Positions 748-6,245 of a DNA stretch of 6,245 bases are shown in pieces. Position numbers and translations under genes: made by a program. The DNA is taken from positions 1-6,245 of IMG/VR virus record IMGVR_UViG_2802429253_000001. One strand, 5' to 3'. Below the pieces are notes generated by a model, which was given only the letters and a program-made list of their open reading frames with translations, was not told the origin of the DNA and searched no databases. The stretch comes from a virus. Its lineage: Duplodnaviria > Heunggongvirae > Uroviricota > Caudoviricetes. The number at the start of each line of letters is the position of its first letter. The first letter of the stretch is position 1.

Positions 748-3700
748 ATGGGTAAAGGTAGCAGTAAGGGGCATACCCCGCGCGAAGCGAAGGACAACCT
801 GAAATCCACGCAGTTGCTGAGTGTGATCGATGTCATCAGCGAAGGGCCGATTGAAGGTCCGGGGGATGGATTAAAAAGCGTGCTGCTGAACAGTACGCCG
901 GTGCTGGACAGTGAGGGGAATACCAATATCTCCGGCGTCACGGTGGTGTTCCGGGCAGGTGAGCAGGAGCAGACACCGCCGGAGGGATTTGAATCCTCCG
1001 GCTCCGAGACGGTGCTGGGTACGGAAGTGAAATATGACACGCCGATCACCCGGACCATCACGTCGGCAAACATTGACCGTCTGCGTTTTACTTTCGGCGT
1101 GCAGGCACTGGTGGAAACTACCTCAAAGGGTGACCGGAATCCGTCGGAAGTCCGCCTGCTGGTTCAGATACAACGTAACGGTGGCTGGGTGACGGAAAAA
1201 GACATCACCATTAAGGGCAAAACCACCTCGCAGTATCTGGCCTCGGTGGTGGTGGATAAACTGCCGCCGCGCCCGTTCAATATCCGGATGCGCAGGATGA
1301 CGCCGGACAGCACCACAGACCAGCTGCAGAACAAAACGCTCTGGTCGTCATACACCGAAATCATCGATGTGAAACAGTGCTACCCGAACACGGCACTGGT
1401 CGGCGTGCAGGTGGATTCGGAGCAGTTCGGCAGCCAGCAGGTGAGCCGTAATTATCATCTTCGCGGGCGCATTCTGCAGGTGCCGTCGAACTATAACCCG
1501 CAGACGCGGCAATACAGCGGTATCTGGGACGGAACGTTTAAGCCAGCATACAGCGACAATATGGCCTGGTGTCTGTGGGATATGCTGACCCACCCGCGCT
1601 ACGGCATGGGGAAACGTCTTGGTGCGGCGGATGTGGATAAATGGGCGTTGTATGTCATCGGCCAGTATTGCGATCAGTCAGTGCCGGATGGCTTTGGTGG
1701 CACGGAGCCGCGCATCACCTGTAACGCTTACCTGACCACACAGCGTAAGGCGTGGGATGTTCTCAGTGATTTCTGCTCGGCGATGCGCTGTATGCCGGTA
1801 TGGAACGGGCAGACGCTGACGTTCGTGCAGGACCGACCGTCGGATAAGGTGTGGACCTATAACCGCAGTAATGTGGTGATGCCGGATGATGGCGCGCCGT
1901 TCCGCTACAGCTTCAGCGCCCTGAAGGACCGCCATAATGCCGTTGAGGTGAACTGGATTGACCCGGATAACGGCTGGGAGACGGCGACAGAGCTTGTGGA
2001 GGACACGCAGGCCATTGCCCGTTACGGTCGTAACGTCACGAAGATGGATGCCTTTGGCTGTACCAGCCGGGGGCAGGCACATCGCGCCGGGCTGTGGCTG
2101 ATTAAAACGGAACTGCTGGAAACGCAGACCGTGGACTTCAGCGTGGGTGCCGAAGGGCTTCGCCATGTACCGGGTGATGTCATTGAAATCTGTGATGATG
2201 ACTATGCGGGGATCAGCATCGGCGGGCGCGTGCTGGCGGTGAACAGCCAGACGCGGACACTGACGCTCGACCGTGAAATCACGCTGCCATCCTCCGGCAC
2301 CACGCTGATAAGCCTGGTTGACGGACAGGGGAATCCGGTCAGCGTGGAGGTCCAGTCCGTCACCGACGGCGTGAAGGTGAAAGTGAGCCGGGTTCCTGAC
2401 GGCGTTGCCGAGTACAGCGTGTGGGGGCTGAAGCTGCCGACGCTGCGCCAGCGCCTGTTCCGCTGTGTGAGTATCCGTGAGAACGATGACGGTACGTATG
2501 CCATCACTGCCGTGCAGCATGTACCGGAGAAAGAAGCCATCGTGGATAACGGGGCGCACTTTGACGGCGACCAGAGCGGCACGGTGAATGGTGTCACGCC
2601 GCCAGCAGTGCAGCACCTGACCGCAGAAGTCACCGCAGACAGCGGGGAATACCAGGTGCTGGCGCGCTGGGACACGCCGAAGGTGGTGAAGGGGGGGAGC
2701 TTTATGCTTCGCCTGACCGTGGCAGCGGATGACGGCAGTGAGCGGCTGGTCAGCACGGCCCGGACGACGGAAACCACATACCGCTTCACGCAACTGGCGC
2801 TGGGAAACTACAGGCTGACAGTCCGGGCGGCAAATGCCTGGGGGCAGCAGGGCGATCCGGCATCGGTATCGTTCCGGATTGCCGCACCGGCAGCGCCGTC
2901 TCGGATTGAGCTGACACCTGGCTATTTTCAGATAACCGCCACGCCCCATCTTGCCGTTTATGATCCGACGGTACAGTTTGAGTTCTGGTTCTCGGAAAAG
3001 CGGATTGCGGATATCAGGCAGGTTGAAACCACAGCCCGCTATCTTGGCACGGCGCTGTACTGGATAGCTGCCAGTATCAATATTAAGCCGGACCATGATT
3101 ATTATTTTTACATTCGCAGTGTGAACACCGTTGGCAAATCGGCATTCGTGGAGGCTGTCGGTCGGGCGAGCGATGATGCGGAAGGTTACCTGGATTTTTT
3201 CAAAGGCCAGATAACTGAATCCCATCTCGGCAAGGAGTTGCTGGAAAAAGTCGACCTGACAGAGGATAACGCCAGCAGACTGGATCAGTTTTCGAAAGAG
3301 TGGAAGGACGCCAACGATAAGTGGAATGCCATGTGGGGCGTCAAAATTGAGCAGACCGAAGACGGTAAGCATTATGTCGCGGGGCTTGGCCTCAGCATGG
3401 AGGATACAGAGGAAGGCAAACTGAGCCAGTTCCTGGTTGCCGCTAACCGTATCGCGTTTATTGACCCGGCAAACGGGAATGAAACGCCGATGTTTGTTGC
3501 GCAGGGCAACCAGATATTCATGAACGAAGTGTTCCTGAAGTATCTGACGGCTCCCACCATTACCAGCGGCGGCAATCCTCCGGTATTTTCCCTGACACCG
3601 GACGGGCGGCTGACGGCGAAAAATGCGGATATCAGCGGTAACGTGAACGCGAACTCCGGGACGCTCAACAACGTCACGGTAAATGAAAACTGTACGATTA

Positions 3701-4161
3701 AGGGCATGCTGGAGGCGAACCAGGTCAGAGGTGACTTCGTTAAAACTGTCTCCAAATCATTCCCGAAACAGGCTGGTACGTGGGGTAACACGGAAACACC
3801 AAACGGGACGGTTACAGTCACCATTTACGATGATCATAACTTTGACCGCCAGATTATTATTCCGCCCATTATTTTTAACGGTGTGGCGTATGACGATCCG
3901 GGGAGCGGTAATAACCCGGGAGGTACGCGATACACGGGTTATGGTTTTGAAGTTCGCAAAAACGGCGTATTAATCGCATCCAGAGAAACTAAAGGAGCCA
4001 TTCCCGGTAGTTACAGTGCGGTTATTGATATGCCGAGTGGTGGTGGTAGCGTCACTCTGGAGTTTAAGATTTTCCAGAAAGGCAATCAGGGCGCAGGTAA
4101 CATCACAGACTGTACGGTGATTGTGACCAAAAAAGCTGCTTCCGGTATCAGTATTAGTTGA
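748..4161 (+). CDS. J: Central tail fibre / host specificity protein J (lambda gpJ family), 1137 aa
   Basis: ATG at 748 preceded by GGAG at 737-740 (7-nt spacing); TGA at 4159-4161. N-terminus [28 protein letters not shown] and most of the body are near-identical to lambda gpJ (1132 aa) as I recall it. Lambda gene order is preserved. Confidence 0.95.
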
Positions 4162-4178
4162 ATTTTATAACCCCAATA

Positions 4179-4207
4179 CGGGCGCCAGAAATGGCGCCTT
4201 TTTTATT
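4179..4207 (+). terminator. Rho-independent terminator downstream of J (tJ-like)
   Basis: GGCGCC (4181-4186), loop AGAAAT, GGCGCC (4193-4198), then a T-rich run at 4199-4207 (TTTTTTATT). Confidence 0.65.
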
Positions 4208-4228
4208 GCAGAAAAGCGAGAGGTAATT

Positions 4229-4828
4229 ATGCGTAAATTATGTGCTGTTATTCTGTCTGCAGTAGTCTGGCTGGTCGCCGCTGGTACGCCAGCGAGCGCA
4301 GCAGAGCATCAGTCCACACTAAGCGGCGGGTATCTTCAGTCCCATACTGATATGCCCGGCAACGATGACCTGAAGGGCATTAACGTGAAATACCGTTATG
4401 AATTTACGGACACGCTGGGGCTGGTGACGTCATTCAGCTATGCAGGAGACAAGAATCGCCAGCTTACCCGTTACAGCGATACCCGCTGGCATGAGGATTC
4501 CGTGCGTAACCGCTGGTTCAGCATGATGGCGGGGCCGTCTGTACGCGTGAATGAATGGTTCAGTGCTTATGCGATGGCAGGTGTGGCTTACAGCCGTGTT
4601 TCGACGTTCTCCGGGGATTATCTCCGCGTAACTGACAACAAGGGGAAAACGCACGATGTGCTGACCGGGAGTGATGGCGGTCGCCACAGCAACACGTCTC
4701 TGGCGTGGGGGGCTGGCGTGCAGTTTAACCCGACCGAATCCGTGGCCATTGACCTTGCTTATGAGGGTTCCGGCAGTGGCGACTGGCGCACTGACGGTTT
4801 CATCGTGGGTGTCGGTTATAAATTCTGA
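4229..4828 (+). CDS. lom: Outer membrane protein Lom (Ail/Lom/PagC family beta-barrel), 199 aa with N-terminal Sec signal peptide
   Basis: ATG at 4229 preceded by GAGAGG; TGA at 4826-4828. Signal-peptide-like N-terminus [24 protein letters not shown]. Body ([48 protein letters not shown]...[10 protein letters not shown]) is near-identical to lambda Lom as I recall it, and ends in the aromatic residue typical of outer-membrane beta-barrels. Position between J and stf as in lambda. Confidence 0.95.
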
Positions 4829-4854
4829 TTAGCCAGGTAACACAGTGTTATGAC

Positions 4855-4881
4855 AGCCCGCAGATTCTGGCGGGCTTTTTT
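4855..4881 (+). terminator. Rho-independent terminator downstream of lom
   Basis: AGCCCGC (4855-4861), 8-nt loop AGATTCTG, GCGGGCT (4870-4876), followed by TTTTTT (4876-4881). Confidence 0.7.
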
Positions 4882-4892
4882 GTGGAGTGGAT

Positions 4893-6158
4893 ATGGCAGC
4901 AGTAAAAATCTCAGGTGTGCTGAAAGATGGTGCGGGAAAACCAATACAGAACTGCACTATTCAACTGAAGGCAAAGCGTAACAGCACCACGGTACTGGTG
5001 AACACGGTGGCCTCTGAAAATCCGGATGAAGCCGGGCGTTACAGTATGGATGTTGAGTATGGCCAGTACAGCGTCATCCTGCTGGTTGAAGGTTTTCCGC
5101 CTTCACATGCCGGAACCATTACCGTCTATGAAGGCTCCAGACCAGGTACGCTGAATGATTTTCTCGGTGCCATGACGGAAGAGGATGTCATGCCGGAGGC
5201 ATTGCGTCGTTTTGAGGCAATGGTGGAAGAAGCGGCACGCAACGCCGAAGCCGCCTCTCAGAGCGCAGCGGCGGCAAAGAAATCCGAAACTGCAGCGGCA
5301 TCATCGAAGAACGCGGCGAAAACCTCAGAAACGAATGCAGCTAACAGCGCACAGGCGGCAGCGGCCTCGCAGACTGCATCGGCAAATTCCGCGACAGCAG
5401 CTAAAAAATCAGAAACCAACGCGAAAAACAGCGAGACAGCCGCAAAGACGAGCGAAACCAACGCAAAGTCCAGCCAGACGGCAGCGAAGATCAGCGAAAC
5501 AAATGCCAAAGCCAGTGAAACTGCGGCGAAAAGCAGTCAGGATGCAGCAGCCGAAAGCGAGAGCGCGGCAGTCGGTTCTGCGACTTCAGCAGCCGGATCA
5601 GCAACTGCTGCGGCTAACAGCCAGCAAGCAGCGAAGACGAGCGAAACTAACGCAAAGTCCAGCCAGACGGCAGCGAAGACCAGCGAAACGAATGCCAAAG
5701 CCAGCGAAACTGCGGCGAAAAACAGTCAGGATGCAGCAGCCGAAAGCGAGAGTGCTGCAGCTGGTTCTGCAACAGCGGCAGCTAATAGCCAAAAAGCTGC
5801 AAAAGCCAGTGAAACTAACGCAAAGACGAGTGAAACAAAAGCAGCAGCCAGCGAGACAGAAGCAACGTCAGCCGCAACAAGAGCAGAGAATGCAGCCCGG
5901 ATTGCAGAAGATGCCGCTGATCCTGCTTCTGTCCCTCCGCTTCCTGATATCTGGCTACCCTTGAATGATTCTCTGGAAGCGATAACAGGGTATGCCCCGG
6001 GCTATAAAACAATAACCATCGGCAGTGATGAAATAACAATGCCTGTTAATGGCATATGCCAATTTAGCCGCGCTTCATCAGCAACGTATATTGATAAGTC
6101 CGGGCATATTACCGTGGCTGAAGCGGCGCACGAAAAACGCGAAAACGTTTCACGATAA
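4893..6158 (+). CDS. stf: Side tail fibre protein (lambda Stf / orf-401-like N-terminal anchor, long heptad-repeat shaft, short divergent C-terminal domain), 421 aa from the ATG
   Basis: ATG at 4893 with GGAG at 4884-4887 (5-nt spacing). The ORF track begins at an in-frame GTG at 4887, which I judge less likely. TAA at 6156-6158. N-terminus MAAVKISGVLKDGAGKPIQNCTIQLKAKRNSTTVLVNTVASENPDEAGRYSMDVEYGQYSVIL closely matches the N-terminus of lambda orf-401/Stf as I recall it. Confidence 0.85.
   Translation: MAAVKISGVLKDGAGKPIQNCTIQLKAKRNSTTVLVNTVASENPDEAGRYSMDVEYGQYSVILLVEGFPPSHAGTITVYEGSRPGTLNDFLGAMTEEDVMPEALRRFEAMVEEAARNAEAASQSAAAAKKSETAAASSKNAAKTSETNAANSAQAAAASQTASANSATAAKKSETNAKNSETAAKTSETNAKSSQTAAKISETNAKASETAAKSSQDAAAESESAAVGSATSAAGSATAAANSQQAAKTSETNAKSSQTAAKTSETNAKASETAAKNSQDAAAESESAAAGSATAAANSQKAAKASETNAKTSETKAAASETEATSAATRAENAARIAEDAADPASVPPLPDIWLPLNDSLEAITGYAPGYKTITIGSDEITMPVNGICQFSRASSATYIDKSGHITVAEAAHEKRENVSR
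5271..5921 (+). repeat. 21-nt periodic coding repeat: 31 consecutive heptads (consensus A-A-K-x-S-E-T / N-A-K-x-S-x-T) inside the side tail fibre gene
   Basis: Translation of residues 129-345 (track numbering) divides into 31 heptads with no stutter: AAKKSET AAASSKN AAKTSET NAANSAQ ... RAENAAR IAEDAAD. Confidence 0.85.
5439..5795 (+). repeat. Tandem direct duplication inside stf: copy 1 at 5439..5627 (189 bp, 9 heptads), copy 2 at 5628..5795 (168 bp, 8 heptads), with high nucleotide identity
   Basis: Copy 1 encodes AAKTSETNAKSSQTAAKISETNAKASETAAKSSQDAAAESESAAVGSATSAAGSATAAANSQQ. Copy 2 encodes AAKTSETNAKSSQTAAKTSETNAKASETAAKNSQDAAAESESAAAGSATAAANSQK. The copies differ by one heptad (GSATSAA-like) and a few substitutions. 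Confidence 0.85.
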
Positions 6159-6160
6159 AT

Positions 6161-6180
6161 GCGAAAACTTTACTTTTCGC
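6161..6180 (+). other. AT-rich hairpin just after the stf stop (GCGAAAA / loop CTTTAC / TTTTCGC)
   Basis: Read directly: 6161-6167 pairs with 6174-6180. No following T tract, so probably not a terminator on its own. Confidence 0.3.
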
Positions 6181-6193
6181 GCTTCAAACGAAA

Positions 6194-6218
6194 CAGCGGC
6201 ATTGGCCGCTGCTTTTTT
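6194..6218 (+). terminator. Strong rho-independent terminator downstream of stf
   Basis: CAGCGGC (6194-6200), loop ATTG, GCCGCTG (6205-6211), then C and TTTTTT (6213-6218). Confidence 0.75.
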
Positions 6219-6245
6219 ATTCATTAAGTGGAATCACTTCGGGTA

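Follow-up and report, generated by a model that had tools for sequence, protein, structure and literature searches.

A lom cassette with its own terminator between J and stf in the distal tail region of a lambda-like prophage

Q-modified polymerase that sets out from pR' is the established way past the late terminators of phage lambda, and terminators lying just past J in the late rightward operon (tJ), overridden by that modified polymerase, were reportedly described by Luk and Szybalski in 1983. The lom gene of lambda (NC_001416, 18965-19585) occupies the same place between J and stf as the lom gene considered here, and phages 434, mEp460 and Ayreon (OL657226, JQ182728, MF807953) share with our locus the order J, terminator, ribosome-binding site (RBS), 199-aa Lom, terminator, RBS and stf. 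In lambda, lom is dispensable for plaque formation (PMC10695390), and adhesion is reported for lambda Lom, as cited in PMC3594210. The same paper relays the definition of a moron by Juhala et al. (2000) as additional DNA lying between two genes that are neighbours in related phages, with its own promoter and terminator, a deviant G+C content, and expression from the prophage. As to expression, lambda lysogens express both lom and bor (PMC7067206, PMC1151598), lom was not detected in lysogens in an array study that describes little as known about its promoter (PMC2147009), and in phi24B lysogens and induced cells expressed it at similar levels (PMC3342100).

We analysed a window of 6,245 nucleotides, by which we mean the whole stretch of DNA under study, in which lom had been proposed from the sequence to be a classic moron, set between two terminators in an otherwise tightly packed late tail operon.

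Gene order and the lom product

The window corresponds to the distal part of the tail region in a lambda-like prophage, with four genes in the order I, J, lom and stf:

46-687, + strand: I
748-4161, + strand: J, tip attachment / host specificity protein, 1137 aa (Pfam J domains; lambda J in the PDB, E = 0)
4121-4161, + strand: last 13 codons of J, the start of a block conserved among lom loci with other J alleles
4229-4828, + strand: lom, 199 aa, predicted Ail/Lom-family outer-membrane beta-barrel precursor (Pfam PF06316)
4893 (ATG)-6158, + strand: stf, side-tail-fibre gene, 421 aa (Pfam phage_tail_N, 7.6e-67), with an RBS, GGAG, at 4884-4887

Because the region is mosaic, the complete E. coli genomes that match the full window are just 92-95% identical to it, among the matches listed; the closest IMG/VR match is 99.8% identical over 2789-6118. 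The G+C content is 56.5% in I, 56.3% in J, 55.5% in lom, 53.2% in stf and 55.0% in the window as a whole, so that lom has no G+C anomaly relative to its neighbours or to the window. Within stf, tandem repeats with periods of 42 and 189 bp occupy 5412-5843 and encode SETNAK-type units rich in Ala, Ser, Thr and Glu, with a strong skew of A over T. An overlapping open reading frame of 259 aa at 5185-5964, in a different frame from stf, probably results from this repeat composition, and a 564-aa open frame on the - strand (1678-3372), antisense within J, is probably a consequence of the high G+C content of J at third positions (0.67). The 87 nt between the end of stf and the end of the window hold no tfa (tail-fibre assembly gene).

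Homology identifies the product of lom as an Ail/Lom-type, 8-stranded outer-membrane barrel, in agreement with the original prediction. The protein aligns with Pfam Ail_Lom (PF06316) over its full length, all 199 residues on all 199 profile positions, at 400.6 bits (E 1.6e-120; cut-off 23 bits), and among solved barrels it matches lambda Lom (9wso, 1.1e-48), the OmpX group (1qj8, about 8e-20) and Ail (3qra, about 2e-17). Judged by eye, a Sec-type signal peptide of 24 residues, encoded by 4229-4300, precedes AEHQ, and the protein ends in VGVGYKF, with the aromatic last residue typical of outer-membrane barrels. A Shine-Dalgarno sequence, GAGAGG, lies at 4218-4223 (+ strand), 5 nt upstream of the ATG, and the phage 434 record annotates a ribosome-binding site at the same place. 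Since Lom scores under the NCBIfam equivalog cut-offs for both Rck (120.7 against 258) and OmpX (105.5 against 176), it is an orthologue of neither.

The 199-aa allele is common to phages 434, mEp460, cdtI and many Stx phages, and is 44% identical to lambda Lom. Despite this modest identity, the last ~130 nt of lom, the terminator-like hairpin after it and the start of stf are near-identical in lambda and the window, which places a mosaic joint inside lom (window ~4700-4892 against 959-1150 of the fetched lambda locus, L002). The structure of lambda Lom, 206 aa, is chain C of PDB entry 9wso, whose partner chains are neither J nor Stf. Lambda-type lom regions were also present in assemblies labelled Neobacillus, Kitasatospora, Leeuwenhoekiella, Pseudomonas, Shewanella, Bradyrhizobium and others (L015-L025); most of the contigs that hold them have about 1-fold coverage, and several of these measure roughly 48.5 kb. 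Their Lom proteins are all 44% identical to that of the window and are therefore probably encoded by lambda DNA, and these regions look like lambda contamination of the assemblies.

Hairpins in the intergenic spacers

Four hairpins on the coding strand concern us, two of them on either side of lom:

706-733, + strand: hairpin in the I-J spacer, AAACCGCC-TGCG-GGCGGTTT, then TGTCGTTT
4180-4207, + strand: T1, putative intrinsic terminator after J; 8-pair stem at 4180-4199 (6 G-C), GAAA loop, tail TTTTTTATT, -15.1 kcal/mol
4855-4881, + strand: T2, putative intrinsic terminator after lom; 7-pair stem at 4855-4876 (6 G-C), 8-nt loop, tail TTTTTT, -13.3 kcal/mol
6194-6221, + strand: T3, terminator-like hairpin after stf; -12.5 kcal/mol (z = -3.2 for 6159-6245)

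T1 and T2 look like real intrinsic terminators. Each has what the intrinsic-terminator rule describes, a G+C-rich stem of at least 5 pairs, a loop of 3-8 nt and a T-run directly after, and when 39-nt segments were folded and compared with shuffles the z-scores were -3.1 for T1 and -2.6 for T2. The strong + strand hairpins of the window fall exactly in its intergenic spacers. The raw number of terminator-like patterns in the whole window, 9 against 7.2 +/- 3.1 by chance, shows no excess, and we accept T1 and T2 as real because comparison with relatives settles the matter.

For this comparison ~100 related lom loci were fetched, and in all of them one hairpin with a T-run precedes lom and another follows it. 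The 12 distinct alleles of T1 include two stem pairs changed on both sides (G-C to A-U and C-G to U-A), and 100% of the cells in the alignment are paired, against 33-64% when the partner column is slid. The T2 alleles are 96% paired and vary by wobble or one-sided changes only, with no compensatory double changes among the alleles compared. The T2 of the window is a weaker allele; the commoner one has 8 bp, a 6-nt loop and a folding energy of -17.6 kcal/mol. Even in a diverged lom allele (L058) the position of T2 is kept, in the form of a different hairpin. There, within 2600-2745 of that locus, lom ends in YRF, the spacer after it is longer and contains an additional imperfect hairpin, and the terminator directly before stf reads AGCCCGTGGCGTCACTGCTGCGGGCT plus a T-run, its place conserved and its sequence not. 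The GenBank entries for mEp460, 434 and 21 mark T1 as a terminator, and those for mEp460, 434 and Ayreon mark both terminators that flank lom. Rfam gave no match at the gathering score; a weak, sub-gathering match to Trp_leader at 4801-4883 reflects the shape of a terminator only, and we set it aside. The folds and the ~100 loci thus bear out the prediction that lom lies between two intrinsic terminators, at 4180-4207 and 4855-4881.

That these terminators insulate lom in particular does not follow. The I-J spacer (688-747) is 60 nt long and folds at -24 kcal/mol (z = -4.2), and with T3 there is a hairpin 3' of each of the four consecutive genes I, J, lom and stf. Because hairpins also follow I and stf, the arrangement is not an insulation special to lom, as had been claimed. 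The description of the operon as otherwise tightly packed needs a qualification too, since the I-J spacer, at 60 nt and with a hairpin of its own, is of the same kind. The I-J hairpin at 706-733 is identical in lambda; it lies within the essential late tail operon, away from any accessory gene.

The present/absent unit and the search for a promoter

Relatives that lack lom were found by searching with the 3' end of J joined directly to the 5' end of stf. Phages HannyBb and ev207 are 96-98% identical to the window in the J and stf flanks and 673 bp shorter, without lom; they read from the J stop through the same T1 hairpin to TTTTTTATTT and then GTGGAGT..ATG of stf. Phage 21 has the same junction, where its record annotates one terminator, and the lom-less J-T1-stf arrangement is seen in phages 21, HannyBb, ev207 and Tritos. 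In total the junction is present in 18 phage records and in 261 of 5426 complete E. coli genomes, and the T1-lom-T2 unit is present in 4084 of the 5426 (75%), at a median of two places per genome having any match. These relatives define one further feature:

4208-4880, + strand: lom cassette, present/absent unit of 673 bp, comprising RBS, lom and T2

Deleting 4208-4880 in silico recreates the lom-less junction, ...GGCGCCTTTTTTATTTGTGGAGTG..., with boundaries that can be moved by up to 2 nt owing to a TT microhomology. The left edge falls exactly at the end of the T1 T-tract. Since the lom-less relatives keep T1, T1 is the backbone terminator of J and lies outside the cassette; by this comparison the present/absent unit consists of RBS, lom and T2. 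The idea that lom is an accessory unit therefore stands as far as its presence or absence between J and stf is concerned, and fails in counting T1 as part of the unit. Identical T1 alleles occur both with and without lom.

The flanks of the cassette are conserved on both sides. In blastn searches, 71 matching segments that cover lom begin at 4121-4123, in the last 13 codons of J, and the corresponding loci carry other J receptor-binding alleles upstream of this point, a sharp recombination boundary within J; the conserved flank on the right consists of the T2 tail and the stf 5' end. Flanks conserved in this way, the 3' end of J with T1 to the left and the T2 tail with the 5' end of stf to the right, make homologous exchange possible, and recombination within them would add the cassette to, or remove it from, phages that carry different J alleles. 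Taken alone, the junction could reflect either insertion of lom or its deletion between two T-tracts.

Just 21 nt separate the left edge of the cassette from the lom ATG, and six of these are GAGAGG, which leaves no room for a promoter inside the cassette. A tool scan of the whole window found no promoter-like sites on the + strand. We also scored sites with a rough sigma-70 matrix, in which lambda pR reaches 13.5 bits and pRM 9.8 bits, and the best site in shuffled segments has a median of 8.6 bits and a 95th percentile of 11.7. Within the conserved block 4121-4228 no site exceeds 5.0 bits, which is below that median. Extending the region to 3900-4228 brings in TTGATA-16-TAGCGT at 4025, which at 10.1 bits does not exceed the range of the shuffled segments and belongs to the part of J that varies; we rejected it. 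Rejected, too, were TATAAC at 4166-4171, which has no usable -35 and a C at its last position, is not in lambda and is present in lom-less phages, and the hexamers in the T1 tail and the lom leader, which gave no score. We thus concur with the earlier view that the J-lom spacer has no convincing sigma-70 promoter. As consensus matrices miss activator-dependent and alternative-sigma promoters, this result means that there is no recognisable sigma-70 promoter. A search of the available literature for a mapped lom promoter found none, and an EHEC transcriptome paper makes no mention of lom.

Set beside the definition of a moron given above, the unit is extra DNA between adjacent genes (the indel 4208-4880) and has its own downstream terminator, T2, within the indel. 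The sigma-70 consensus scan found no upstream promoter of its own in the 21 nt before the ATG, and its G+C content (lom 55.5%, window 55.0%) is not deviant. lom is not, then, a self-contained promoter-gene-terminator moron: of the classic moron layout, accessory status and the gene's own terminator survive, and the promoter, the deviant G+C and the membership of T1 do not.

Transcription of lom and comparison with described systems

From the T2 tail to the stf ATG there are only 11 nt, so stf has no promoter of its own, and late transcription must therefore pass both T1 and T2. By analogy with lambda, Q antitermination is the most likely means of this read-through: in lytic growth a Q-modified late transcript from pR' would pass the I-J hairpin, T1 and T2, and lom, lying between the last two, would consequently be co-expressed as a late gene. 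In a lysogen, we infer, T1 would halt unmodified polymerase arriving from J and T2 would keep lom transcripts out of stf. With 21 nt upstream of the ATG, any transcription of lom in the prophage cannot begin inside the cassette; its source would have to be either a start that is weak or needs an activator, located at the J stop and T1 or further upstream and leaking through T1, or a start that is unrecognisable to consensus methods. We consider it probable that the locus as a whole is to be read in this way, as a dispensable 673-bp cassette of RBS, lom and T2 that sits at the end of T1, is exchanged via its flanks, has no sigma-70 promoter, and depends on Q for late read-through.

Other readings differ from this one in where transcription starts, in the history of the cassette, or in what the hairpins do. 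On the original prediction lom would be a self-contained moron that includes both terminators, and the 3' end of J would supply it in lysogens with a weak sigma-70 promoter, TTGTGA (4121-4126)-19-TATCAG (4146-4151). The reported expression of lom by the lambda prophage fits this, as does the coincidence that the block conserved among lom loci starts, at 4121-4123, at the proposed -35 hexamer. The candidate itself scores 2.95 bits, far under the best scores of shuffled segments, and falls outside even the lax criteria of the tool, with its 19-nt spacer and a -10 hexamer that lacks T at position 6. TTGTGA is missing from most lom-bearing loci, which read GTGATGAAGAAAGCC... there, while both hexamers are found in the J 3' end of lom-less HannyBb; moreover, a transcript begun near 4158 would reach T1 ~40 nt on, and T1 persists where lom is absent. 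We reject the candidate as a promoter and regard the reading built on it as highly improbable. It is also improbable, if a little less so, that lom is truly promoterless and mainly a Q-dependent late gene, set between J and stf, which both encode receptor-binding proteins. On that reading the barrel would act in lytic growth or at release, perhaps by changing the surface of a dying cell or of its debris, and prophage expression in lambda would amount to leakage through T1 from cryptic starts in J.

The history of the cassette could also run the other way, with lom ancestral and the lom-less phages arising by secondary deletions between the T-tracts of T1 and T2, so that lom would be an eroding resident gene that was never acquired. 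The TT microhomology at the junction speaks for this, both ends lying in similar hairpin-plus-T-run sequence, and so do the far greater frequency of lom-bearing junctions (4084 against 261 E. coli genomes) and a G+C content of lom equal to that of the backbone. An insertion at a T-tract would give the same junction, however, and the sharing of T1 alleles between loci with and without lom fits repeated exchange via the flanks in either direction. Phage 21 and several unrelated isolates share one identical lom-less junction, which marks the lom-less form as a stable, transmissible state. On this evidence an ancestral lom is a possibility to be taken seriously, and a doubtful one. Less likely still, the main work of the hairpins would be to stabilise 3' ends or to act as processing barriers in the long late mRNA, setting the ratios of the I, J, lom and stf messages rather than insulating lom in lysogens. 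Such a role would account for a hairpin after each of the four genes and for the I-J hairpin, whose T-run is interrupted and which lambda shares unchanged in a place that involves no accessory gene; but T1, T2 and T3 carry the full terminator signature, a G+C-rich stem followed by at least 6 T, and the roles of stabiliser and terminator are mutually compatible. We accordingly retain the exchangeable, Q-dependent cassette as the preferred reading.

GenBank annotations and reviews already cover lom, the family it belongs to, both terminators and the accessory nature of the gene, and the arrangement is very common. What the present comparison adds is a refinement: natural lom-less relatives fix the cassette to the base, with a terminator inside it and no promoter, and a cassette so exactly bounded sharpens the old question of where lom transcription starts in lysogens.

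The closest described systems are phages 434, mEp460 and Ayreon, which are ~89% identical to the window over 4000-5000. They differ from it by allele, T2 having 8 bp and a 6-nt loop where the window has 7 bp and an 8-nt loop, and also in the J receptor-binding domain and the stf repeat region. Lambda, too, has a terminator-like hairpin and T-run before lom and a near-identical T2 after it; its T1 is a different and weaker hairpin (-9 kcal/mol against -15.1 in the window), and its Lom has 206 residues where that of the window has 199. With the Ail, OmpX, PagC and Rck barrels, Lom of the window shares a full-length Ail_Lom match and homology to OmpX and Ail, while staying below the equivalog cut-offs that would make it Rck or OmpX. 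As summarised in PMC3594210, the morons of HK97 and HK022 resemble the window unit in being extra DNA with their own downstream terminator and a non-essential, host-directed product; the window unit differs from them in having no recognisable promoter and an undeviating G+C content, and in that its upstream terminator belongs to the phage backbone.
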